Program-made: the position numbers and the translations under genes
Assembly (NCBI GenBank): GCA_964531405.1
Contig: CAZHHK010000001.1
Span: 913-64,912 of the forward strand
Origin: an uncultured Spirochaetales bacterium
Lineage (GTDB): Bacteria; Spirochaetota; GWE2-31-10; JAFGQB01
Length of the DNA: 64,000 nucleotides
Direction: 5' to 3'
Shown here: positions 18,136 to 42,082 of the stretch, piece by piece
Layout of the letters: each line of letters opens with the position of its first letter
Position numbering within the stretch: position 1 is the stretch's first letter
Notes under the pieces: model-generated
Seen by the model: only the letters and a program-made list of their open reading frames with translations
What the model was told of the DNA's origin: nothing
The model's database searches: none

Positions 18136-19830
18136 ATGCCGGATCATACTAATCCTCTTATTGTTCAAAGTGATTTTTCATTATTACTTGAGGTGTTTAA
18201 TGATAAATTTGAAACAGTAAGAAACGGATTAACAAAATTTGCCGAATTAATTAAATCACCTGAACATATCCACACATACAGATTAACAAGTTTGAGTTTA
18301 TGGAATGCTGCATCTATAGGTTTATCATATAATGAAATAATTGAATTTCTTAATAAGTACTCGAAATTTGAAATACCACAAAATATAATTGTTGAAATAG
18401 ATCAAATATACAAGAGATTTGGACTTGTAGAAATCCATAAATCAAACAATAAAAATACACTCGTTTTATATGTTAAAGATAATCATATCGAGCAGGAAAT
18501 ACTTTCAAATCCAAAATTAAAAAAATATCTGCTTGATAAAAAAAGTGACAGAGAATATTATTTTAATGAGCTTAACAGAGGAAATTTAAAAGTTGATTTT
18601 TTTAAATACAACATCCCGGTAAATGATATTGCTGGTTATACAAACGGAGACAGTCTCGATTTTAATATAAAATCTATCACTCTTCAAGGACGGGAATTTA
18701 AAATACGTGATTACCAAAAAATGGCAGGAGACTCATTTTATCATGCCGGCTCAAATATAGGAGGACATGGAACGATTGTTTTACCCTGCGGTTCCGGTAA
18801 AACAATTGTTGGATTATACATAATGTCCATGATCAAATCCTATACACTAATATTAACAACTAGTGTTGCCGCAGTTCATCAATGGATAAATGAATTACTC
18901 GATAAAACTACTCTGACAAAAGATCAAATCGGGGAATATACTGGTGATAAAAAAGAAATTAAACCTATCACGATATGTACCTATCAGATATTGATTTATA
19001 GAAAAAATAAAGAGAGCGATTTTTTACACTTTGAAATTTTTCATGCACAAAATTGGGGATTAATAATATATGATGAAGTCCACTTATTACCAGCACCGAT
19101 TTTTAAAATAACTGCTGGAATTCAAAGTAAAAGGAGACTAGGACTAACAGCCACTTTAGTCAGAGAAGACGGCAATGAAAAAGATGTCTTTTGTCTTATT
19201 GGTCCTAAAAAATATGACACACCATGGAAGGTTCTTGAAAAGCAAGGATGGATCGCAGAGGCAAGGTGTTTTGAAATAAAATTACCTTTACCCGAAAAAT
19301 TATTAATGGAATATCTGATTTCTGATCAAAAACTTAAATATACAATATCCTCTAAAAATCCTTATAAAAATATCGCTCTTAAAGATCTGTTATTCAAACA
19401 TCAGGGTCAATTAATTTTAATAATTGGTCATTTCCTTGATCAGTTACGTGAAGTTGCAATGCAATACAACGCTCCTTTGATAACGGGAAAATCTACAAAT
19501 AAGGAAAGAGAAAATACATATAAGAAATTCAGGGATGGAGAAATCAAAATACTTGTTGTAAGTAAAGTCGCCAATTTTTCAATTGATCTACCTGACGCCA
19601 GTGTTTTGATCCAATTAAGCGGGACTTATGGATCAAGACAGGAAGAGGCTCAGAGATTAGGAAGGATTTTACGACCCAAACAAAATAATATTTCATATTT
19701 TTACTCACTGGTAACCAAAGATACTATTGAAGAACAGTATTCGCATAAGAGACAAAGATTTTTAACAGAGCAGGGCTACAACTATGAAATAGATTTTTGG
19801 GATCCTCAGGAATTTGTATGGGAGAAATAA
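18136..19830 (+). CDS. XPB/ERCC3/Ssl2-like SF2 DNA helicase (archaeal/eukaryotic NER-type)
   Basis: 564 aa; Walker A LPCGSGKT; motif II DEVH; XPB-signature RED motif (GLTATLVREDGNEKD); motifs V/VI (QLSGTYGSRQEEAQRLGRILR); N-terminal about 150 aa DRD-like domain. Confidence 0.8.
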   Translation: MPDHTNPLIVQSDFSLLLEVFNDKFETVRNGLTKFAELIKSPEHIHTYRLTSLSLWNAASIGLSYNEIIEFLNKYSKFEIPQNIIVEIDQIYKRFGLVEIHKSNNKNTLVLYVKDNHIEQEILSNPKLKKYLLDKKSDREYYFNELNRGNLKVDFFKYNIPVNDIAGYTNGDSLDFNIKSITLQGREFKIRDYQKMAGDSFYHAGSNIGGHGTIVLPCGSGKTIVGLYIMSMIKSYTLILTTSVAAVHQWINELLDKTTLTKDQIGEYTGDKKEIKPITICTYQILIYRKNKESDFLHFEIFHAQNWGLIIYDEVHLLPAPIFKITAGIQSKRRLGLTATLVREDGNEKDVFCLIGPKKYDTPWKVLEKQGWIAEARCFEIKLPLPEKLLMEYLISDQKLKYTISSKNPYKNIALKDLLFKHQGQLILIIGHFLDQLREVAMQYNAPLITGKSTNKERENTYKKFRDGEIKILVVSKVANFSIDLPDASVLIQLSGTYGSRQEEAQRLGRILRPKQNNISYFYSLVTKDTIEEQYSHKRQRFLTEQGYNYEIDFWDPQEFVWEK

Positions 19831-21293
19831 ATTTATCTTATCTTAATGAAAATGAAATAATAAGCCTTTATGAACTTTTTTTTGGGAACGTTTTAATCAA
19901 AAAAAACGGCTTTTCATACTATGACAATCTGTCGAAAAATTTAACAAAAGAAGAAGTAATAACAAATTCCCTACAAAAATTGAATGATATTGAAAAATCA
20001 ATCTTAAAAATTCTTTCATTTACAACAATAATCCCTTATAAATTTATAAATGAAAAATTAAGCATTTTGCTGGATTTGCCAATTATATCGATTAATAAGG
20101 CAATAAATAATCTTTTGGAAAAAAAATTTATTTTTATAAGAAATGATAATTCGATTGTTATTCCAAATATCTTTTATAAAAATGAAAAACAAAACATTTA
20201 TTTTCAGAAAATAAATCCTCTAATTATAGATAAAAAAAATAATTTACTTACCGATTTTAACAACTTAATAAATATTTTTATTTCTAAGGAGATAAAATTC
20301 ACAAATAATTTCAATCTATATAAAAAAGACATTGAAACTGTAAAAGAGTACATGTCTAATTATTCAAATTTTGATGATACAAAAATTGCCCTTGTCGGTA
20401 ATTTTTTTTGCAGATATTTTTTTGATAATGAAAACAATCTGTTGTATAATTGTTTACAATCTTATTTTGAAATGGAAAATGAAAAAAAACTCTACTGCAT
20501 AATAGAAAACACATTGCCTTCTTTTTATAACCTTTTGATGAATTTTGATGAAGGATATTCAATAAAAATTGATATAGAAAATTTTAAGAAATTATATAAC
20601 AGCTCTTTCCTTATAACTGAATATAAAAACGAACCAATTGATGTAAATTTTGAGAATTTATTATTTCTTTTAAATGAATTTGAATTGATTGAATATAATA
20701 CATCACAAAACTATATAATTTTCCCGGTGAAAAGCAATAATAAAAACATAATCAATGATCAGGTTAACCTCACAACAAGTTTTAATGTTTATATAAACGC
20801 TGACACCAGGAATCCTAATTACTATCTTCTTTCATTCTTTGCCGATATTATAAAATATAATAAAATATCAGAATACGAAATTACTGAAAATTCAATCAAA
20901 AGATGCTCAAGATACAATATTACAATAGAAAACATAAGAGATTTTTTTAAGGCTTATAAAATCGAACTTCCCAAAAATGTTGAAACAACAATACAACAAT
21001 GGTTTGACAAATATGGTTCATACTATTATACGTCTGGCACAATATTTTTCTGCCAGACTACAGAAAAGGGTAAAATTATTAGTTCACTAATAGATAAAGG
21101 TTTTATTCACGCTTATCAGATTAAAAAAGATGAAATTTTTTTAATCCCTGAAGACTCAAAAAAAGAGTTTTTTGAATTTCTAGGGAAAACAGGGATTTAT
21201 TATAATTTTAAGAATCCTGTTAAATTAATGCATAAAAGTAAAATTACACCTACATCGCTAAAACAGATATTGAATTTTATAGAAAATAATTAG
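19818..21293 (+). CDS. Hypothetical protein, XPB-coupled partner (Bax1-like genomic position; family unassigned)
   Basis: The ORF track starts it at TTG 19797. An ATG at 19818 has AGGAA 5 nt upstream and overlaps the XPB stop (19828-19830) by 13 nt, which suggests translational coupling. The roughly 490-aa product is N/K/I-rich with no motif I can assign. Its 3' end overlaps the convergent GDE gene by 4 nt. Confidence 0.5.
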   Translation: MGEINLSYLNENEIISLYELFFGNVLIKKNGFSYYDNLSKNLTKEEVITNSLQKLNDIEKSILKILSFTTIIPYKFINEKLSILLDLPIISINKAINNLLEKKFIFIRNDNSIVIPNIFYKNEKQNIYFQKINPLIIDKKNNLLTDFNNLINIFISKEIKFTNNFNLYKKDIETVKEYMSNYSNFDDTKIALVGNFFCRYFFDNENNLLYNCLQSYFEMENEKKLYCIIENTLPSFYNLLMNFDEGYSIKIDIENFKKLYNSSFLITEYKNEPIDVNFENLLFLLNEFELIEYNTSQNYIIFPVKSNNKNIINDQVNLTTSFNVYINADTRNPNYYLLSFFADIIKYNKISEYEITENSIKRCSRYNITIENIRDFFKAYKIELPKNVETTIQQWFDKYGSYYYTSGTIFFCQTTEKGKIISSLIDKGFIHAYQIKKDEIFLIPEDSKKEFFEFLGKTGIYYNFKNPVKLMHKSKITPTSLKQILNFIENN

Positions 21294-32525: not shown

Positions 32526-32554
32526 TTGACACCGCTCTTTTTAAGAATTATAAT
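32526..32554 (+). promoter_or_regulatory. Consensus sigma70 promoter (TTGACA-17 nt-TATAAT) for the RecD-like gene
   Basis: TTGACA at 32526-32531 is the very triplet the ORF track uses as a TTG start. 17-nt spacer. TATAAT at 32549-32554. The first in-frame ATG is at 32565, 10 nt after the -10, implying a leaderless or near-leaderless mRNA. Confidence 0.5.
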
Positions 32555-32564
32555 AACAAACATT

Positions 32565-34478
32565 ATGAAAAATCAAACTATTGACAAAATGCTATTTAAA
32601 TACACAGAATTAAAAGAACAAATTTTCGAATTATTGAATTTAAATAGTATTGATTACTATACGATAATGGATTTAATCGGTTATTTAAAAAATTATGATG
32701 ACGAAACAATTAAAAGTATATTTGTCATTCTTTCATGCATGTTTGATTCTTTAAAAAATGGAAGCATCTGTCTTAATCTTAACGGAGAACAGATTACTTA
32801 TCAGTTGGAAAAAATAAATTATAATAAGAAATTTTTAGATCCTGTGATAAACAGCATTATCAATAAAAAATTTTTCCATGAAATAATCGGATATGATGAA
32901 AATGATTATAAGCCTCTGATTTTCAAAAATCTTAATAATAAACCCTTTATTTATTTTCAAAAATATTTTTTTTATGAAAAAGAATTAAGACTGTGTCTTG
33001 ATCTACTTTTGTCTAAAAAAAATAAAAATAATTTGCCTGAAAATATAATCGATGAAATAAAAAAAAGCTCACTTGATGAAAAACAAAAAGTTGCTGTTTA
33101 TTTTGGATTAATCAATAATTTTACAATAATCTCCGGCGGTCCGGGCACAGGCAAGACTTATATAATATATTTCATCTTAAGAATGCTTGCCAAACTTGGA
33201 TTAGAGCCCTCAAAGATAAAGGTTGCCGCTCCAACGGGAAGGGCCAGCCAAAGACTTACTGAATCAATAAGATGTAATCTGTTAAAAGAGAACGATATTT
33301 CAATAAAAGATATGATTGGTAAAATCGAAGGAGAAACAATCCATAAAATACTGCATTATTCAAGATTAACAGACAATTTTACTTATAATGAAAACAATAG
33401 ATTTTCAATTGATGCATTAATTGTGGATGAAGTTTCTATGGTGGACCTTGTGTTGATGGCCAAACTTTTAAGATCACTTCCCGAAAAATGCAGGGTTGTT
33501 TTTTTGGGTGATAAAAATCAAATTCCTTCGGTTGAAGCAGGAGCTGTTTTGACAGAATTAATCCCTTCTAATTTCAAAGAGTCGTTCAGTAAAGAGGTGA
33601 ATAAAGTAACAGAAAATTTAAAAGTATCGGAAAAATTAATCAAAACGACGGATAGGATTATAATTCTTGAAAAATGCTTTCGCACTGATGAAAAAATTTT
33701 AAAAGTTGCTGAAATGATAAACCAAAAGAATATATCGAGTTTGGCTATAATAAAAAAAATCAAAATAGACGAAAAAATGTTTTTGGATAGTATAAATGAT
33801 ATTTATATAATCAAACAAGACAAAAATAACAGAGAAGCATTAAATATAGTAATCACAAGGTGGATCAAAAAATATTTTATCGACAAAGGTTACATAAATT
33901 TAATTAATGATATTGCAACGATTGATTCTCAAAAATACGACAGAGAACTCCTTTTAAATTTATTTAATATCATGGGAAATAATAAAATTTTATGCATTAT
34001 TAAAGAAAGTCTATACGGTGTAAATTATATAAATTCGATAATAAAAAATTTGTTTGAAAATAAAATCATTTATAAAACTGAAAAATATTTTTCAGGAATG
34101 CCTATAATTATAAATAAAAATGATTATCGCAAAAATTTATTCAATGGTGATGCGGGGATCATCATAAGAGATATAACGGGGATTTTTAGGGCAGTATTTT
34201 TTAAAAATGACACCTTTCGTTTTTATCCTGTTGACTTCCTCCCTCCTCATGATATGGCATTTAGCATAACGGTACATAAAAGTCAGGGATCGGAATACAA
34301 TGATGTTTTGTTGATACTACCAGATAACGAATCAAACAAACTTTTAACAAAAGAGATTTTATATACTGCAATAACACGATCCAGGTCAACTGTTTACATA
34401 TATTCTGATGAGGAGATTTTAAAAAAGTGTATAATGACTCAAGTTTCAAGAGAGTCGGGGATTAATCTTTACGAATAG
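32565..34478 (+). CDS. RecD-like SF1 DNA helicase (RecD/TraA family, AAA_30 + UvrD_C_2)
   Basis: Walker A GGPGTGKT; motif II ALIVDEVSMVD; C-terminal SF1 block AFSITVHKSQGSEYNDVLLILPD...LYTAITRSRSTVYIY. The start is moved from the ORF-track TTG 32526 to ATG 32565 because 32526-32554 forms a consensus promoter. The ORF ends with TAG at 34476-34478. Confidence 0.75.
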   Translation: MKNQTIDKMLFKYTELKEQIFELLNLNSIDYYTIMDLIGYLKNYDDETIKSIFVILSCMFDSLKNGSICLNLNGEQITYQLEKINYNKKFLDPVINSIINKKFFHEIIGYDENDYKPLIFKNLNNKPFIYFQKYFFYEKELRLCLDLLLSKKNKNNLPENIIDEIKKSSLDEKQKVAVYFGLINNFTIISGGPGTGKTYIIYFILRMLAKLGLEPSKIKVAAPTGRASQRLTESIRCNLLKENDISIKDMIGKIEGETIHKILHYSRLTDNFTYNENNRFSIDALIVDEVSMVDLVLMAKLLRSLPEKCRVVFLGDKNQIPSVEAGAVLTELIPSNFKESFSKEVNKVTENLKVSEKLIKTTDRIIILEKCFRTDEKILKVAEMINQKNISSLAIIKKIKIDEKMFLDSINDIYIIKQDKNNREALNIVITRWIKKYFIDKGYINLINDIATIDSQKYDRELLLNLFNIMGNNKILCIIKESLYGVNYINSIIKNLFENKIIYKTEKYFSGMPIIINKNDYRKNLFNGDAGIIIRDITGIFRAVFFKNDTFRFYPVDFLPPHDMAFSITVHKSQGSEYNDVLLILPDNESNKLLTKEILYTAITRSRSTVYIYSDEEILKKCIMTQVSRESGINLYE

Positions 34479-34484
34479 GAGTAA

Positions 34485-37400
34485 ATTATTAAATTCATAG
34501 CAGATTTTCATATACATTCAAGTTATTCGGTTGCAACCAGCAAACATCTTAATCCCACAAATCTTGACAAATGGGCAAGAATAAAAGGCATTAATGTTAT
34601 AGGAACGGGAGATTTTACTCATCATAAGTGGACTGAAGAACTTGAAAAAAAGCTTAGCGAGTCAGGAGAGGGGTTGTATGAATTAAAAGAAGAGTTTAAG
34701 GATAAAGAATTTATTGGTAATAATAATCCTGTAAAATTTATTCTGTCCGGCGAAATAAGTTTAATCTATAAAAAAAAAGATAAAGTAAGAAAAATTCATA
34801 ATTTAGTTTTATCTTCGGATTTTGCTACGATAAGAAAAATTCAGGAAAAATTATCAAAAATCGGGAACATAACTTCTGATGGGAGACCTATACTGGGATT
34901 TGATGCAAAGAATTTTCTTGATTTGATTTTGAATATAAATGAAAATTGTCTGGTTATACCTGCTCATATCTGGACGCCATGGTTTTCAGTTTTGGGCTCC
35001 ATGTCAGGATTTGACTCAATAAAGGAATGCTATGAGGATTTAAGCAGGTATATATTTGCAATTGAAACCGGATTGTCTTCAGATCCAGCAATGAATTGGA
35101 TATGCTCTTTTCTCGATGATTACGCCGTAATATCAAATTCTGATGCGCATTCACCTGAAAATCTCGGCAGGGAAGCAAATATCTTCGATACTGATTTAAC
35201 TTATAACGGGATAATAAATGCGTTAAAATCAAACGATAAGAATAAGTTTTTATCTACAATCGAGTTTTTCCCTCAGGAAGGCAAATATCATTATGATGGA
35301 CATCGTAAATGCAATGTTGTAATTGATCCTATAAATGCATTAAAAAATAATAACATATGTTCTGTATGTGGTAAAAAATTAACTCTTGGAGTAATGCACA
35401 GAGTTGTTGAGCTTTCAGACAGAACTACTATCGATGAATGTCCTAATGTCCGTCCATACTATTCCCTGATACAGCTTAAAGAGCTGCTTTCAGAAATTTT
35501 TAATTCGTCACCCTCTTCAAAAAAAGTTGATGATAATTATTTCAATCTTATTAAAATGTTTGGATCGGAGTTTGATATACTATTAAACAAATCACTAGAA
35601 GAGTTAAAATCATCAGGCAACGAACTTTTAGTTGAGGGAATAAAAAGGATGAGAGAAGGGAATGTAATCATACAGGAAGGCTATGATGGCGAGTATGGAA
35701 GAATAAAAGTTTTTAATGAAGATGAAGTCTCATCGCTTAAATCAAAAGATTTGTTTTTTATTCCTATTGAGAAGAAAACGATAAATAAAAGAGACAAGAT
35801 TGATTTTGAGGAATTTAAAAAAATAAAGGATAATAATAAAAAGAATGAAGCCTTTAAAGAAAACGCACACACATACAGCGATGGCTTCTCCCTGAATAAT
35901 CTTCAGTATGAAGCGGTTAAAAATATTTCTGGTGCAAGTATCGTAATCGCAGGACCAGGCACTGGCAAGACCAAAACTTTAACCTATAAAATTGTGGAAT
36001 TAATTAATGCAGGCATTAAACCTGAAAACATTCTAGCAATAACTTTTACTAATAACGCGGCAAACGAGATTAAAGACCGTTTGAAAATATTACTAAAAAA
36101 TTCTAGAAACATCAATGAAATAACTGTTTCGACTTTTCATTCCCTGGGTTATAAAATCATAAATGATTTTATAACAATCGGCGATAAAACGTCGATTATA
36201 ATCGATGATGATGATAAGGAATTTATTATAAAACAAATTTCTGATTTACAAAAGACCGAAATAAAAAAAGCAGTTAAAGTTATTTCTGATTTAAAGCAAT
36301 TTATTATTAAAAATAATCAAGCAGATGACAGATTTAATGAAATATTTTCTTGCTACAATGCTTTCTTAACAAAAAATAATCTTTATGATCTGGACGATCT
36401 TATTTATTTGCCAGTAACGGTTTTAAGAGAAAATAAAGAAATATTAGATAATATCAGAAAAAAATACACTTATCTTATTGTTGATGAATATCAGGATGTA
36501 AATCCCATTCAATATGAATTAATAATGTTGATTTCGGGGAAAGTCGATGCAAATATTACGGTAATTGGAGACCCAAATCAGGCAATTTACGGATTCAGGG
36601 GATCAAATTCTATGTTTATAAAAAGATTCCTGTTAGATTTTCCTGATGCAAAAATATTCAAACTTGAAAAAAGTTACAGATGCTCAAACAGAATTCTCAA
36701 TGCAAGTTCTCAGATTTTAAACAGTAGCTTTTTGCTTAATGGCTTGGAAGATGGCATAAACATAAACATTAACGAATTTAATACAGAGGGTGAAGAAGCC
36801 GAATTTACAGCACGTAAAATCGAACAACTTGTAGGAGGCTTAAGATTTTTTTCGATGGATTCAAAAATCGTTGATAGCGGCGATGAAGGCGGTTATGCAT
36901 TATCGGATATTGCAGTATTATGCAGGACTTATGATTTAATGAATCCTTTAAAAAAAGCATTTATCGATCATTCAATCCCTTGTGAAATTATTTCGAAGAT
37001 AAGTATATACAAAAAACATCCATTTGATAAAATTATTAATATTTTAAAATTCTTTATAAACCCTGAAAATAAATTTCTTATGGACAAAGCTTTAAGGATC
37101 AATGGAATTACAAAAGACACATTAAAATATTATAATAAAAACAAACTCATTGATTCGATTAAAAATCTAATTGATATTTATTTTCCTGATGAGATAAAGT
37201 CCAATCCAGAAGATTTTAAAATATTTTTTAATGAAATTGATAACTACGAAAATAATGCAAAAGCATTTATTAACTCGGTTTTGTTAAATAACACAGAAGA
37301 ATCTTTTAATATAAAAAAGGAAGCAGTAAGTATAATGACAATGCATGCTTCAAAAGGATTAGAATTTAAATGCGTATTCATAATCGGCTGTAACGATAAA

Positions 37401-37655
37401 TACATGCCGTTAAATCTATATGAAAATCAGCAAACCGATCTCGATGAAGAAAAAAGACTGCTTTATGTTGCTATGACAAGAGCTAAATCAAATCTTTTTA
37501 TAAGTTTCTCTAAAAAAATAAAATTATTTGGCACAAACATCAATGCAAATATAAGTCCTTTTTTAAAAAAAATAAAAAAAGACTTAATCGAATATGAAAA
37601 AATTAAATCGGATGCCTTTAAAAAACCTAAAGACAAACAGTTGGAATTATTTTAA
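34485..37655 (+). CDS. Fusion protein: N-terminal PHP phosphoesterase with Zn-ribbon (EndoQ/COG1379-like) + C-terminal UvrD/PcrA-family SF1 helicase
   Basis: The ORF track starts at TTG 34674. The same frame is open back to 34485 and encodes a canonical PHP N-terminus (ADFHIHSSYS...GTGDFTHHKW). Further PHP motifs follow (PAHIWTPWF, DAHSPENLG), then a Zn-ribbon-like HYDGHRKC...CSVCGKK. The helicase part has Walker A IAGPGTGKT, motif II VDEYQDVNP, motif III GDPNQAIYGFRGS and UvrD_C (MTMHASKGLEFKCVFIIG, LLYVAMTRAK). No ATG/GTG/TTG occurs in frame between 34485 and 34674, so the start must be non-canonical (ATT 34485 or 34488, or ATA 34497). Confidence 0.75.
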   Translation: MIKFIADFHIHSSYSVATSKHLNPTNLDKWARIKGINVIGTGDFTHHKWTEELEKKLSESGEGLYELKEEFKDKEFIGNNNPVKFILSGEISLIYKKKDKVRKIHNLVLSSDFATIRKIQEKLSKIGNITSDGRPILGFDAKNFLDLILNINENCLVIPAHIWTPWFSVLGSMSGFDSIKECYEDLSRYIFAIETGLSSDPAMNWICSFLDDYAVISNSDAHSPENLGREANIFDTDLTYNGIINALKSNDKNKFLSTIEFFPQEGKYHYDGHRKCNVVIDPINALKNNNICSVCGKKLTLGVMHRVVELSDRTTIDECPNVRPYYSLIQLKELLSEIFNSSPSSKKVDDNYFNLIKMFGSEFDILLNKSLEELKSSGNELLVEGIKRMREGNVIIQEGYDGEYGRIKVFNEDEVSSLKSKDLFFIPIEKKTINKRDKIDFEEFKKIKDNNKKNEAFKENAHTYSDGFSLNNLQYEAVKNISGASIVIAGPGTGKTKTLTYKIVELINAGIKPENILAITFTNNAANEIKDRLKILLKNSRNINEITVSTFHSLGYKIINDFITIGDKTSIIIDDDDKEFIIKQISDLQKTEIKKAVKVISDLKQFIIKNNQADDRFNEIFSCYNAFLTKNNLYDLDDLIYLPVTVLRENKEILDNIRKKYTYLIVDEYQDVNPIQYELIMLISGKVDANITVIGDPNQAIYGFRGSNSMFIKRFLLDFPDAKIFKLEKSYRCSNRILNASSQILNSSFLLNGLEDGINININEFNTEGEEAEFTARKIEQLVGGLRFFSMDSKIVDSGDEGGYALSDIAVLCRTYDLMNPLKKAFIDHSIPCEIISKISIYKKHPFDKIINILKFFINPENKFLMDKALRINGITKDTLKYYNKNKLIDSIKNLIDIYFPDEIKSNPEDFKIFFNEIDNYENNAKAFINSVLLNNTEESFNIKKEAVSIMTMHASKGLEFKCVFIIGCNDKYMPLNLYENQQTDLDEEKRLLYVAMTRAKSNLFISFSKKIKLFGTNINANISPFLKKIKKDLIEYEKIKSDAFKKPKDKQLELF

Positions 37656-37686: not shown

Positions 37687-38508
37687 TTAAAAAACTTCAT
37701 AATTAAGGTTGCCATTTTCCACAGAAACCTTTAAGAAGCAGTCCACGCCCTTCTCCCTATTGTTTAATACGATATATTTTGTCCCCCGAATTTTTTTTTC
37801 ATCATATTTATGAAGATGACCACATATAAAAAAATCGACATTATATTTATCACAAAGGTCTATCAAAAAATATGCTTCCTCAGGATAAGTCATTGATGTT
37901 GGGGTTTCAAATTCCTGATCTGTCGGGCTGTAATGAGTAAATAAAATTTTATGTTTTGCATTAGTTTTATCAAGCCTTTCTTTTAACCAATTTTTTTGCT
38001 GCTCGCCCAGCGTACCATTTGCTGTATCAAAAAAAAGATAATAAGTATTGCCGATTGTAAAGTCATACATAGTTCTTCCGAAATATTTTTTATAATATTT
38101 AAATCCGTCATTATAAATATCATGATTTCCAATAACAGGATAAAAAGGCAGGCTTGTTTTTTTTATGTCCGCTTTAATTAAATCATAAGCTTCCTTTTTT
38201 CCGTTTTGTATAAGATCGCCTGTAACTACTATAAAAGAAATCCCCCAGTTATTCTTATGCTTCTCAATGTCTTCAAAATAGCCAAGCTGCGCATTGTAAT
38301 AATGCGTATCCGTAATTACGATAAAGCTGTAATTATTAACATCCGCTAAAGTAGGTGCATTATAGTCTTTTAAAGAATCATTCTTGTCAAATCTGTTATC
38401 AACATCCGATGATGAAAATACTCCCCCAAGATCGATATAATCACAACCGGACAATAAAAAAATAAAAGCTAGAATTAAAACAATCATATTATTTTGTTTT
38501 AAACGCAT
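37687..38508 (-). CDS. Calcineurin-like metallophosphoesterase lipoprotein
   Basis: 273 aa; signal peptide with lipobox-like LLSGC; metallophosphatase motifs (VITDTHY, VTGDLIQNG, VIGNHD, CGHLH). Confidence 0.75.
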   Translation of the reverse strand: MRLKQNNMIVLILAFIFLLSGCDYIDLGGVFSSSDVDNRFDKNDSLKDYNAPTLADVNNYSFIVITDTHYYNAQLGYFEDIEKHKNNWGISFIVVTGDLIQNGKKEAYDLIKADIKKTSLPFYPVIGNHDIYNDGFKYYKKYFGRTMYDFTIGNTYYLFFDTANGTLGEQQKNWLKERLDKTNAKHKILFTHYSPTDQEFETPTSMTYPEEAYFLIDLCDKYNVDFFICGHLHKYDEKKIRGTKYIVLNNREKGVDCFLKVSVENGNLNYEVF

Positions 38509-39271
38509 AAATAACTCCTATTCTAAACCATCCTTTGCTTATTATTCCTGCCATGGGCAGAGATCCTGCATAACCTATGCCACCATTAAAATAAATTGTA
38601 AGATTGTTCGGCAGATGTATATAATTTAAAAATTCAAGCTGCCAGTAATTAAATGAATAAATTTCGTATTCAGGGATATTGCCAAGAGAAAGTCCTGCAG
38701 AAAAAAAACACATCGGATGAACAAGCATTGTTAATTTCCATTTGAAAGAAGCGTTGAAAAGCCAGTCTTTTTTGTAAACGCTATTAGGATCTTCTATATC
38801 TATATCCACAAACCGTAAGGCAAATCCTGAATCAATACTGAATGTAAAATATTTTATGAAATTGAACATCAATAACATTTTGATTATTATATCATGCTCG
38901 GCAACTTTATAAATACTAAAATCCCTGAATTTATAATCAACATCAAATGCTAAAAATTTTATTGGTCGGTAATAAGTACCAACATCAAAAGTTTTTATTT
39001 TTGGAGTGTTTTCTCCAAGACAAAGCTTCGATGTAAAAAAAAGTGAATCACTGAAATTTAGTGAAAAATTATATTCATAAAAAAAACTGAAAGGCAGTCC
39101 TCTTGTTTTATCGAATGTATTAGAAAAATTGAAAATGATATAATCTGGAATAAATTTATGAATCTTATAAATTATTTTATCTTTTTTCTCCCAGAAAGGA
39201 TTTTCATAAGTAAAAGCAGGGAAAATAATAATAAATATGACAATTGAAACAAATAATATTTTTTTTAACAT
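38489..39271 (-). CDS. Hypothetical secreted protein (possible outer-membrane beta-barrel)
   Basis: 260 aa; N-terminal signal peptide; alternating aromatic/hydrophobic pattern, Y/F-rich; overlaps the downstream phosphoesterase gene by 20 nt; no family assignment. Confidence 0.4.
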   Translation of the reverse strand: MLKKILFVSIVIFIIIFPAFTYENPFWEKKDKIIYKIHKFIPDYIIFNFSNTFDKTRGLPFSFFYEYNFSLNFSDSLFFTSKLCLGENTPKIKTFDVGTYYRPIKFLAFDVDYKFRDFSIYKVAEHDIIIKMLLMFNFIKYFTFSIDSGFALRFVDIDIEDPNSVYKKDWLFNASFKWKLTMLVHPMCFFSAGLSLGNIPEYEIYSFNYWQLEFLNYIHLPNNLTIYFNGGIGYAGSLPMAGIISKGWFRIGVIYAFKTK

Positions 39272-39499: not shown

Positions 39500-42082
39500 A
39501 TGATTGGATCCAACAATTTAAATTTAAGAGATTGGCAACAATATTATATAAAACTCGATCCTTCTTATGGCAACTTAATAGCCAGTATTTTACAGTCTAT
39601 TTTTAAAAATAAGTATTCAACGATCAATTCACTCATAAATACAATCAAAAAAAAACAAACTAAAATAGTTACCGAAGAGGGAACTATCGATTTGCTTTTT
39701 AAATTTGATGAAGTAATAAAGCTTACTCCGAGATTTCAAATAACAAATACGGTCACTGGCGAAGACAATAAAATTAAAAATTCATTATCCATAGTATGTG
39801 ACTTTATAATTACACTCAATTTTAACAATATTAAAGGCTTTAATAACGAATATATAAAAAGTGTACAAGAACTTCTAGATAAATTGACAGCAATAAATAA
39901 AAAAATATTAATCAAATATTTATTAAAGCAATTAACTAAAGGAAATTATTTTGTTTCTATGGATTTTTTGGAAAAAGAAATATTTGAATCAAAAATACCT
40001 TTTACCGATTACACCGTACAGGATATTTTCCAAAAATTTAATGTTACGAGTTATAATACTATTTATTCACTTTTAAATTTGAATAATTATGACGATAATA
40101 ACAATATAACATCAAATGTAAAAGTAATAAGCATCCCTTTTACTCCTTATCATATGGATACGTATCTTTCCAGAGAATTGCAACATGTTTATAGAATAAA
40201 ATATAATATCGGCAAAGGAGAATTAAATACAAAATTACTTTATCTTAATGCAGATTATCCTATTGAAGATAAAAAAACTATTTATGATGCACTGGTTTTA
40301 AGCATTTATAATAATTATCTACCAAATAAATTAGACAGAACTTGTAATGATGATTTCAAATTTGAAACTGATGATATGACACAACAAGAAAATAAATCAT
40401 TAGAAGACTCATCTACAACTGAAGTACAAGATATAAAAGATAAATTCGAAAGAAAAAAAATGATTTTAAAGATTTTAAAAGCCGATAAAATCCCAAAACA
40501 CGAAATAGATTTTCTGGATTCTATAGATTATGAAAAACTTCACATTAAAAACACCTTCGTCTCGGTTTTAAATTATCTTTCAAATCCTTTCCTTTCAAAA
40601 ATAATAAACACAGCTCAGTTTAGATTTTTAAAGCAGTACATAATAACTAACTATGGCCCAAGCATAAAAGAAAGCATAGATGAAGAGACTAGAGCTTTGA
40701 TTGAAAAAAAATTTATAGAATATATTCAATCTAAAAACTGTTATTTTATTGAATTTTATAATAATATTCTTCAAAATATATGCGACTTAACCGGAGAGAA
40801 AAAATTTCTAGTTGATACGATAATCAGAACATCAAGTATATTTAAAAATTTTTGTTTTACAAAATATCTTGTAAAACAAAAAAAAACATCAATAAATAAT
40901 TTTCAAACATTTTTAAAAATAATAGGAAGTGACTTTTTTGCATTCTTAAATGATGGATCTGAAGATGATATGGTTGTTGTGCCTTATTTGAAAATCAAAG
41001 AATTCCTTCTTTTTTTGATTACATCGGAAATAAACTCAACCTGGCAAAAGTTAAAGGATCTTTTTGAAGAATTATTAAAAACTGTAAAATCGATTGTTTT
41101 TACGGCAAATCAAAGCGGCGCAGATATTCGCATGGTTATGATAGACAGTACAAATTATAATATAACTGTTAAAGATAGAAGTAATGTAAAAAATTTTCAA
41201 ATTAAGACTATTGAAGATATAGAATTTATATTTCAGGATAAAGAACAGGAAAAGTTCAAGACTATAGTTAAGATGCTTTATAACCTCCATTATAAAAGTG
41301 GTTTTGGTTTTGATAACAAAAAAGATTTCAATAAGCTTATAGAGATGTACAATGCAAGATGCGATGAATACAGTCTCTATAAATTAAAGCTTGATCAATA
41401 TGAAGAGGCAACATCAAGCGCCAAGGGGTTTCTTGCTTTTTTAAAAAAACTCTTTTTTTGGATCCCTATGGCTATTAACAACCATAATTTACTCAGGATA
41501 ATGAAAAAAAATGAAATTGTTGCTAAAAAAATTAAGCTTTATTATACTCAACCTGTAGAATGCCAGAAGACAAAAGTACTAGTGGGTAATAATAGCGAAC
41601 TGGGAAACATAAAAGAGAAAATAATGGAATTCATTAATACAAAAGATGAAATCGATTTGATAAAAGCTAAAAGAAAGCAGGAAAAAGTAAAAGAAATTCA
41701 ACCAAAGAAAGAAATCAAAAAAGAAGAAGAGAAAAAAATACCATTGCCTGAATTAGACAGTGAAGAACTCAAGCTTTTTGAATTTATTAATAAATATCTT
41801 AAAGCCGATAAAGATGTCATGTTTACTAGAAGCTCAAACATGGATGAAGAAATAATTGTTATATATATCAAAGACAATAAATCTCCAACGTTGTTTTCCA
41901 ATAATTTAAAAGACTTAAATACTATCGACGAATATTCTACAAGATATTTTAATATAAAACAGCTAATTAATAAAAGGTATATAAGCCAGAAAGAATTAAT
42001 AAGAACAACAAATGATAATAAAAAAATCTGCTATCTCACCTATGCACGGCAGTATTATCAATATATGAATAAATATAGATAA
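39500..42082 (+). CDS. Large hypothetical cytoplasmic protein (860 aa, no recognisable domain)
   Basis: Long uninterrupted ORF; AAAGG SD upstream; no signal peptide; no P-loop; K/E-rich linker (KKEIKKEEEKK); followed 4 nt later by the DUF62 gene. Confidence 0.5.
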   Translation: MIGSNNLNLRDWQQYYIKLDPSYGNLIASILQSIFKNKYSTINSLINTIKKKQTKIVTEEGTIDLLFKFDEVIKLTPRFQITNTVTGEDNKIKNSLSIVCDFIITLNFNNIKGFNNEYIKSVQELLDKLTAINKKILIKYLLKQLTKGNYFVSMDFLEKEIFESKIPFTDYTVQDIFQKFNVTSYNTIYSLLNLNNYDDNNNITSNVKVISIPFTPYHMDTYLSRELQHVYRIKYNIGKGELNTKLLYLNADYPIEDKKTIYDALVLSIYNNYLPNKLDRTCNDDFKFETDDMTQQENKSLEDSSTTEVQDIKDKFERKKMILKILKADKIPKHEIDFLDSIDYEKLHIKNTFVSVLNYLSNPFLSKIINTAQFRFLKQYIITNYGPSIKESIDEETRALIEKKFIEYIQSKNCYFIEFYNNILQNICDLTGEKKFLVDTIIRTSSIFKNFCFTKYLVKQKKTSINNFQTFLKIIGSDFFAFLNDGSEDDMVVVPYLKIKEFLLFLITSEINSTWQKLKDLFEELLKTVKSIVFTANQSGADIRMVMIDSTNYNITVKDRSNVKNFQIKTIEDIEFIFQDKEQEKFKTIVKMLYNLHYKSGFGFDNKKDFNKLIEMYNARCDEYSLYKLKLDQYEEATSSAKGFLAFLKKLFFWIPMAINNHNLLRIMKKNEIVAKKIKLYYTQPVECQKTKVLVGNNSELGNIKEKIMEFINTKDEIDLIKAKRKQEKVKEIQPKKEIKKEEEKKIPLPELDSEELKLFEFINKYLKADKDVMFTRSSNMDEEIIVIYIKDNKSPTLFSNNLKDLNTIDEYSTRYFNIKQLINKRYISQKELIRTTNDNKKICYLTYARQYYQYMNKYR

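Follow-up and report, generated by a model that had tools for sequence, protein, structure and literature searches.

An ATT codon as the most probable start of an EndoQ-UvrD gene behind recD in an uncultured Spirochaetales bacterium

Where does a gene begin when the conserved N-terminus of its protein lies ahead of the first ATG, GTG or TTG codon in its open frame? The question is raised by a locus in a 64,000-nucleotide stretch of DNA from an uncultured Spirochaetales bacterium (GenBank assembly GCA_964531405.1, contig CAZHHK010000001.1, positions 913 to 64,912 of the forward strand), which we call the window and whose own coordinates we use throughout. In the window, the recD gene for a RecD-like helicase is followed, in the same reading frame and across the junction TAG-GAG-TAA, by an open reading frame (ORF) that fuses an endonuclease Q (EndoQ) domain to a UvrD helicase. 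EndoQ is a zinc-dependent nuclease for deaminated bases. In our assessment the gene behind recD is very likely a full-length endoQ-uvrD, and its sequence points to the ATT at 34488, an AUU in the messenger, as the codon from which translation most probably starts. The features that the argument needs are the following, all on the + strand.

32565 to 34478, +: recD, an exodeoxyribonuclease V alpha-like helicase of superfamily 1B (SF1B), 637 aa, ending in TAG (TIGR01447, 398.5 bits against a cutoff of 310)
34476 to 34478, +: the recD stop codon TAG, which overlaps the Shine-Dalgarno (SD) motif of endoQ-uvrD
34477 to 34481, +: the SD motif AGGAG (GGAG at 34478-34481), 6 nt 5' of ATT 34488
34482 to 34484, +: a second in-frame stop, TAA, which re-closes the recD frame and is the upstream bound of the endoQ-uvrD open frame
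34485 to 34487, +: ATT, an alternative and less likely start, 3 nt from the SD motif; this codon is unconserved in relatives
34488 to 34490, +: ATT, the codon at which initiator tRNA most probably starts translation (as AUU), judged from its alignment with Met1 and its SD spacing of 6 nt
34497 to 34499, +: ATA, a third and unlikely start candidate, 15 nt from the SD motif, encoding a conserved Ile4
34488 to 34673, +: the 62 N-terminal codons left out by existing gene calls, with the Zn ligands His8 and His10 and the motif GTGDFTH
34664 to 34676, +: the SD-like stretch AGGAGAGGGG (codons Ser-Gly-Glu-Gly) and then TTG 34674, the gene callers' start (993-aa product)
34488 to 37655, +: the full endoQ-uvrD coding sequence as proposed, 1055 aa plus stop, with the ORF intact

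Around the junction the window reads ...CTT TAC GAA TAG GAG TAA ATT ATT AAA TTC ATA GCA GAT TTT CAT ATA CAT TCA... The GAG at 34479-34481, which comes after the recD stop, is in frame with the downstream ORF. Read from ATT 34485, that ORF begins I-I-K-F-I-A-D-F-H-I-H-S-S-Y-S, continues through G-T-G-D-F-T-H, and stays open to the stop that ends at 37655. Between TAA 34482 and TTG 34674 there is no in-frame ATG, GTG or TTG at all, and the first of them, TTG 34674, is reached only after 63 open codons. From base composition, so long a stretch without a stop would occur with a probability of about 0.007. Of the window's 47 long ORFs, endoQ-uvrD alone runs for more than 33 codons until a canonical start appears. 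A first-pass annotation of this DNA, made by a model from the letters and a list of ORFs, had described the same-frame TAG-GAG-TAA, the two ATT codons at 34485 and 34488, the ATA at 34497 and the lack of a canonical start before TTG 34674, and all of this holds in the sequence. It had also noticed the SD motif; the motif is there, but not at 34476-34479, the coordinates it was given, which have to be replaced by those listed above. We considered whether an alternative genetic code is in use and ruled it out: all three stop codons are used by the window ORFs (TAA 34, TAG 7 and TGA 6, in a genome of 30% GC), and table 11 leaves the ORFs unbroken.

What does the open frame encode? The N-terminal ~440 residues are an EndoQ domain of the PHP fold, with a TIGR00375 match over residues 6-407, and the UvrD helicase follows, with PF00580 (217 bits) and PF13361 (144 bits) together covering residues 470-1010; these domain positions are counted from ATT 34485, and are thus one above the numbering from ATT 34488. 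The helicase part carries the motifs GPGTGKT (Walker A) and DEYQD (DExx), which place it with the UvrD/PcrA helicases of superfamily 1A (SF1A). The TIGR00375 score of 171 bits is under the equivalog cutoff of 326.6, and by its sequence the protein is a member of the EndoQ family and not a TIGR00375 equivalog. The family PF27218 is assigned to its homologues and also to the called 993-aa product. A phmmer comparison with the EndoQ of Pyrococcus furiosus (PfuEndoQ, PDB 5zb8) gives an E-value of 9.8e-47 and aligns residues 5-425 on residues 5-397, with identical N-terminal numbering. PfuEndoQ holds its Zn with six ligands, His8, His10, Glu76, His84, His139 and Asp193 (PMC5961232), and the window protein has identical residues at all six and in the CxxC motif of the Cys cluster. 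PfuEndoQ (PDB 5zb8, 7k30) is thus of the same fold family, but it is an archaeal enzyme that stands alone with ~400 aa, while the window protein carries a UvrD/PcrA-type helicase at its C-terminus. The fusion itself is common in bacterial metagenome-assembled genomes (MAGs): all 120 of the best matches listed for the full-length query carry PF27218 together with PF00580, and most of them are 1035-1122 aa long. In the literature we found no paper that treats EndoQ-UvrD fusions or the codons at which they start.

The alignment of the junction with related loci, proposed in the first-pass annotation as a check, has now been done. Scans of genomes and metagenomes produced 159 related loci, with a best identity of 65% or less and no close orthologue among them; the informative close relatives came by way of N-terminally truncated protein calls and of the recD neighbour. 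In most of these loci the gene is separate and starts with ATG. The codon aligned with ATT 34488 is canonical in 151 of the 159 (ATG in 134, GTG in 10, TTG in 7), and 7 further loci have a canonical start 1-7 codons upstream of it. The I-K-F-I-A-D-F-H-I-H of the window corresponds to the M-K-F-I-A-D-F-H-I-H of the family, and over the first 62 residues 40 (65%) are identical to the homologue P0004. The SD motif sits 6 nt ahead of ATT 34488, and the AGGAG/GGAGG-type motifs at other window genes are found at 5-10 nt. As a control within the window, the ATG gene starting at 38508 on the - strand has the initiation region gaatAGGAGttatttATG, nearly the same context as gaatAGGAGtaaattATT at ATT 34488. 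The earlier proposal that the conserved N-terminus is reachable only from a non-AUG start is thus borne out, and of its three candidates it is ATT 34488 that aligns with the family Met1, has the right SD spacing, and is kept in relatives.

How far does the rare start extend among relatives? When EndoQ domains are compared by neighbour joining (NJ; ~300 columns, unbootstrapped), the closest homologues fall into a single clade of nine, made up of the window, L165/L029, L161, L166, L167-L170 and L001. Eight of these nine have a near-cognate codon at the aligned position (ATT in six, ATC in one, CTG in one), and the ninth, L001, has an ATG four codons upstream. The near-cognate members other than the window are these.

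L165, Spirochaetota bacterium Bin_88, GCA_046703745.1: RecD 54% identical; recD TAA, then 1 nt, then ATC AAA ATA ATA GCT GAT TTT CAT, behind GGGGAGGG
L166, ERZ23498480: GGGGGGTGAaga ATT; call of 406 aa (truncated)
L167, GCA_964646595.1: AAGGAG, 7 nt, ATT; call of 1047 aa (truncated)
L168, SRR27370447: AAGGAG, 7 nt, ATT; call of 1046 aa (truncated)
L169, GCA_040961665.1: AAGGAG, 7 nt, ATT; call of 1039 aa (truncated)
L170, ERZ23486237: TAGGAG, 6 nt, ATT; call of 1009 aa (truncated)
L161, SRR2636951: AAGGAG, 6 nt, CTG; call of 442 aa (extended, with its start placed at an ATG 24 codons upstream)

All eight near-cognate codons follow an AGGAG, AAGGAG or G-rich SD motif; in L161 and L167-L170 it is of the AGGAG type, with 6-7 nt between it and the aligned codon, and in L165 and L166 it is a G-rich variant. 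With the exception of L161, the near-cognate loci (7 of 8) offer no canonical start ahead of the catalytic HxH motif. In L165 there is none after the in-frame stop; its contig ends, and the remainder of the gene is on L029, which is 71% identical over residues 105-400 and open for 952 codons from residue 104. The EndoQ domains of the clade loci are 61-90% identical, and no fewer than five of these loci have intact ORFs (the window with 1055 codons, L167-L170 with ~1072-1077 aa once their omitted N-termini are restored, and L029). Synonymous positions in codons 3-7 vary within the clade, and the ATT and the SD motif stay constant. Outside the clade, none of ~154 loci lacks a canonical start (uncorrected Fisher p ~1e-12, which overstates the significance, the clade's eight loci being phylogenetically non-independent). 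AT-richness as the sole cause is ruled out by 24 equally AT-rich loci outside the clade that have canonical starts. From its nearest relatives, L001 and L029/L165, the clade probably belongs to the Spirochaetota. ATT, ATC and CTG all rank among the top four non-canonical initiators of E. coli; measured there on two plasmids, AUU, AUC and CUG reach 1-2% of the AUG level with one and 0.02-3% with the other (10.1101/063800).

We can then propose how the gene would be translated. The strong SD motif AGGAG, 6 nt upstream, would position the 30S subunit in an unstructured, AU-rich initiation region. The initiator fMet-tRNA would read the near-cognate AUU, and the protein would start Met-Lys-Phe-Ile-Ala-Asp-Phe-His-Ile-His; the predicted N-terminal peptide from ATT 34488 is (f)MKFIADFHIHSSYSVATSK. 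The AUU would work at a few percent of the efficiency of AUG and be discriminated against by initiation factor IF3, so that translation would be low and potentially responsive to IF3, as in infC, pcnB and ebpA. The recD TAG shares bases with the SD motif and lies 9 nt ahead of the start; ribosomes that terminate there may reinitiate in what would be a two-gene operon. The use of AUU 34488, the lowered expression and the IF3 sensitivity are all things that we infer by analogy with established AUU-class starts (infC, pcnB, ebpA; PMC4447247, PMC2830850).

The comparison with infC, drawn in the first-pass annotation, is apt. The E. coli infC gene, which encodes IF3, starts with AUU 3 nt after the thrS stop, in the arrangement UAA GGU AUU (PMC3592434), and as in endoQ-uvrD we have an AUU a few nucleotides behind an upstream stop, an SD motif, a rare start conserved across relatives, and a codon of the class that IF3 discriminates against. 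The difference is that infC closes an autoregulatory loop, whereas the product of endoQ-uvrD would act in DNA repair, and any IF3 sensitivity would be an input with no feedback. In E. coli pcnB (AUU, mentioned in 10.1101/063800) and Enterococcus faecalis ebpA (ATT), a weak start limits the translation of a potentially costly protein, and the same may be true here by analogy. The case of ebpA shares another trait with endoQ-uvrD, in that the start given in databases is a canonical codon further downstream, whereas aligned homologues indicate the ATT ahead of it (PMC4447247). The starts of pcnB and ebpA have been proven by mutagenesis and reporter fusions, whereas that of endoQ-uvrD rests on comparative evidence. 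Finally, the dnaA (ATC) and rpsL (CTG) genes of Deinococcus have clade-conserved non-canonical starts known from N-terminal proteomics (PMC2830850). There too a near-cognate start is kept in one lineage, and N-termini were mis-annotated until homologues were aligned; our case differs in being of another lineage (probably Spirochaetota) and another gene, and in being known from sequence.

Which other explanations have to be weighed? One is that a different near-cognate codon is used, either ATT 34485 or ATA 34497. Each of them lies in the right frame, and with ATT ATT in tandem either of the two could serve. But AGGAG would be 3 nt from 34485 and 15 nt from 34497, outside the range of spacings at the other window genes, the codon aligned with 34485 in relatives is AGA, CCA, ACT, ACA or TTT and never start-like, and ATA 34497 corresponds to the conserved Ile4. 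We regard this explanation as unlikely.

Another explanation is that the annotated start is right, that is, that a 993-aa protein is made from TTG 34674 and the open stretch upstream is a relic. All the pipelines (NCBI, JGI and Logan) call the 993-aa TTG product (P0241 in NCBI and Logan), TTG is a canonical start with an SD-like motif 5 nt upstream, and PfuEndoQ retains roughly half of its activity when mutated to H8A or to H10A (PMC5961232). But the 62 codons skipped are stop-free at 30% GC, with the low probability given above, and are 65% identical to a homologue. As had been anticipated, a start at 34674 deletes metal ligands: His8 and His10, two of the six, would go, and the GTGD motif with them. 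The internal SD-like motif is composed of Ser-Gly-Glu-Gly codons, and the gene finders chose TTG 34674 because AGGAGAGGGG directly precedes it. Nor is this position conserved in the clade, as the ATT and its SD motif are. The first downstream canonical codon differs in each clade member, being 20, 25, 31, 37, 62, 65 or 70 codons in, and therefore there is no conserved internal start. Orthologues that begin at the equivalent of 34674 and lack the HIH-containing segment would have spoken for the annotated start; what we find is a conserved HxH segment and no shared internal start. Translation from TTG 34674 as the gene's proper start is in our view improbable, and the 993-aa annotation is probably, from the sequence, an artefact of N-terminal truncation. 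Among the eight near-cognate loci the gene calls are truncated in six and extended in one. The full 1055-aa product, in its M-first version, is absent from the records, and we found no ATG variant among strains: the 90% cluster of the 993-aa protein consists of M-first and L-first versions of one sequence, plus fragments.

A third explanation is a recent pseudogene that has lost its start and makes no functional protein. A single G-to-T change turns the family ATG into ATT, and mutation biased towards AT is plausible at 30% GC. Against this, the near-cognate start is found in eight clade members whose EndoQ domains are 61-90% identical, the long ORFs of the clade are intact with their catalytic and helicase motifs conserved, strong SD motifs are kept, and the equally AT-rich loci outside the clade retain canonical starts. 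We consider a pseudogene very unlikely.

To two last explanations we attach next to no weight. The recD gene and the downstream ORF share a frame with only TAG GAG TAA between them, and the first-pass annotation had suggested that readthrough or suppression would yield a RecD-PHP-UvrD mega-fusion, which relatives might encode outright; but two stops would have to be read through, one of them TAA, the genome's main stop, and the only other recD neighbour, in Bin_88, is in a different frame, and the Met1 of the homologues falls exactly at 34488. We rule out the fusion, no relative having a continuous ORF: ahead of the start position, the frame is open for no more than 34 codons in any of the first 80 loci (L001-L080), and for no more than 31 in any non-ATG locus of the 159. 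The same-frame arrangement of TAG-GAG-TAA is, on this sequence comparison, incidental. The other explanation, also raised before, is a sequencing or assembly error that masks a canonical ATG. Nothing was found in its favour, and it is very unlikely because three assemblies from other samples (JGI 3300029799, SRR8165485 and SRR16606022) carry 100% identical DNA over 11.9-14.6 kb, including ATT ATT, and the position holds a near-cognate codon in seven other lineages.

Several points weigh against translation from ATT 34488, or against giving it too much meaning. The support for this start is comparative. The half activity of H8A and H10A means that losing both ligands is no proof of inactivity, though the 62 residues that would go belong to the fold as well. 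On computational grounds ATT 34485 is a less likely but possible start, and TTG 34674 may give a minor product. In L161 there is an in-frame ATG 24 codons upstream of the CTG, which is the one that the gene caller takes. The clade rests on the unbootstrapped tree of ~300 columns, and its members do not count as independent cases. And the weak start may have been kept through drift that is tolerated as well as through selection.

Could the rare start be explained by its position behind recD? Coupling of termination and reinitiation, another proposal of the first-pass annotation, is possible in this genome, but it does not explain the rare start. Six other near-cognate members of the clade have no recD upstream, and in L167-L170 the upstream gene, of the TatD family, is divergently transcribed, with ~230-320 nt of AT-rich intergenic DNA before the ATT. 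Without an upstream cistron, the rare start of L167-L170 therefore works, or is tolerated, as a site of de novo initiation. In E. coli reporters whose stop and start lie close together, the infC junction UAA GGU AUU among them, reinitiation and de novo initiation have about equal shares (PMC3592434), and reinitiation after the recD stop may contribute in this genome. In L166, positions 80-140 hold a GC-rich hairpin (GTGGGG...CCCCAC) and a T-run upstream of the ATT-start EndoQ gene; the hairpin resembles a terminator of the preceding gene, and the L166 ATT start is therefore not translationally coupled. As for RNA structure, the junction in the window has a minimum free energy of -10 kcal/mol (z = -1.4) with the SD motif in a loop. 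A regulatory hairpin at the junction is unsupported, and the initiation regions of the relatives (z from +0.4 to +1.5) have no structure above that of shuffled controls. We found no tRNA, tmRNA or Rfam family in the window.

Why does this matter? An annotation error that is systematic is corrected, the calls for this gene and six relatives being short by 20-65 residues or, in one case among them, long by 24. Gene finders limited to ATG, GTG and TTG can strip catalytic residues, which matters for cloning EndoQ enzymes from MAGs as tools for deaminase assays. A DNA-repair nuclease-helicase would join the very short list of near-cognate starts conserved in a lineage (infC, pcnB, ebpA, and the dnaA and rpsL of Deinococcus). 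And the relatives with ATT, ATC, CTG and ATG provide a built-in comparative series in which the cost and benefit of a weak start are testable.

Ahead of recD lies a candidate promoter.

32526 to 32554, +: perfect sigma-70 consensus promoter TTGACA-N17-TATAAT, putatively of recD/endoQ-uvrD (function proposed from the consensus match), with the -10 element ending 10 nt before the recD ATG

This is the one such site in the window, against 0.08 expected. Between 32300 and 37800 we found no terminator-like site, and promoter-like matches there are at background except for the consensus site at 32526. Between the -10 element and the recD ATG at 32565 there is no SD motif, and the recD mRNA is probably, from this spacing, leaderless or nearly so. 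Bin_88 has the same perfect consensus 11 nt before its recD ATG (L165, 714-756). In both genomes recD and endoQ-uvrD form a two-gene operon, with a gap of 9 nt in the window and 1 nt in L165. Bin_88 is the only other genome in which recD is upstream of endoQ-uvrD, and its two genes are in different frames (TAA-A-ATC). A tblastn search with RecD against 161 loci found just L063, where recD is downstream; synteny with recD is not a feature of the family. NCBI, JGI and Logan all have the identical 637-aa RecD protein (P0121), on several contigs.

IF3 disfavours both near-cognate starts and leaderless mRNA. One can then speculate that the clade conserves the weak start as an adaptive means of control, by which EndoQ-UvrD is kept at a very low copy number, and that, together with a leaderless recD, this start would raise the RecD/EndoQ-UvrD module when IF3 activity per ribosome falls (stress, cold, immature 30S subunits). 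We hold this to be possible, though rather doubtful. With one SF1B helicase (RecD) and one SF1A helicase joined to a nuclease (EndoQ-UvrD), the pair is reminiscent of RecBCD/AddAB, in which two helicase motors are combined with a nuclease; the other relatives lack this pairing. That the two proteins act together as a RecBCD/AddAB-like machine is a further possibility; no recB or recC was found among the ~30 window ORFs scanned.

Some homologues of the fusion have peculiarities of their own. P0277 (1451 aa) has a LAGLIDADG domain, PF14528, and is ~370 aa above the length of its relatives, which suggests an intein in the helicase. P0001 and P0067 have internal duplicated blocks of ~100-130 residues, which are probably assembly chimeras or recent tandem duplications.

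Elsewhere in the window, two ORFs next to the operon are without family assignments: one of 860 aa at 39500-42079 on the + strand, with no significant NCBIfam or Pfam match, and one of 260 aa at 38492-39271 on the - strand, with no significant NCBIfam match and no Pfam family on record for its gene call. At 18136-21290 there is an XPB/ERCC3-like helicase (PF16203, PF13625), followed by an overlapping ORF of 498 aa without a Pfam match, and this pair may be a bacterial XPB with its partner nuclease.

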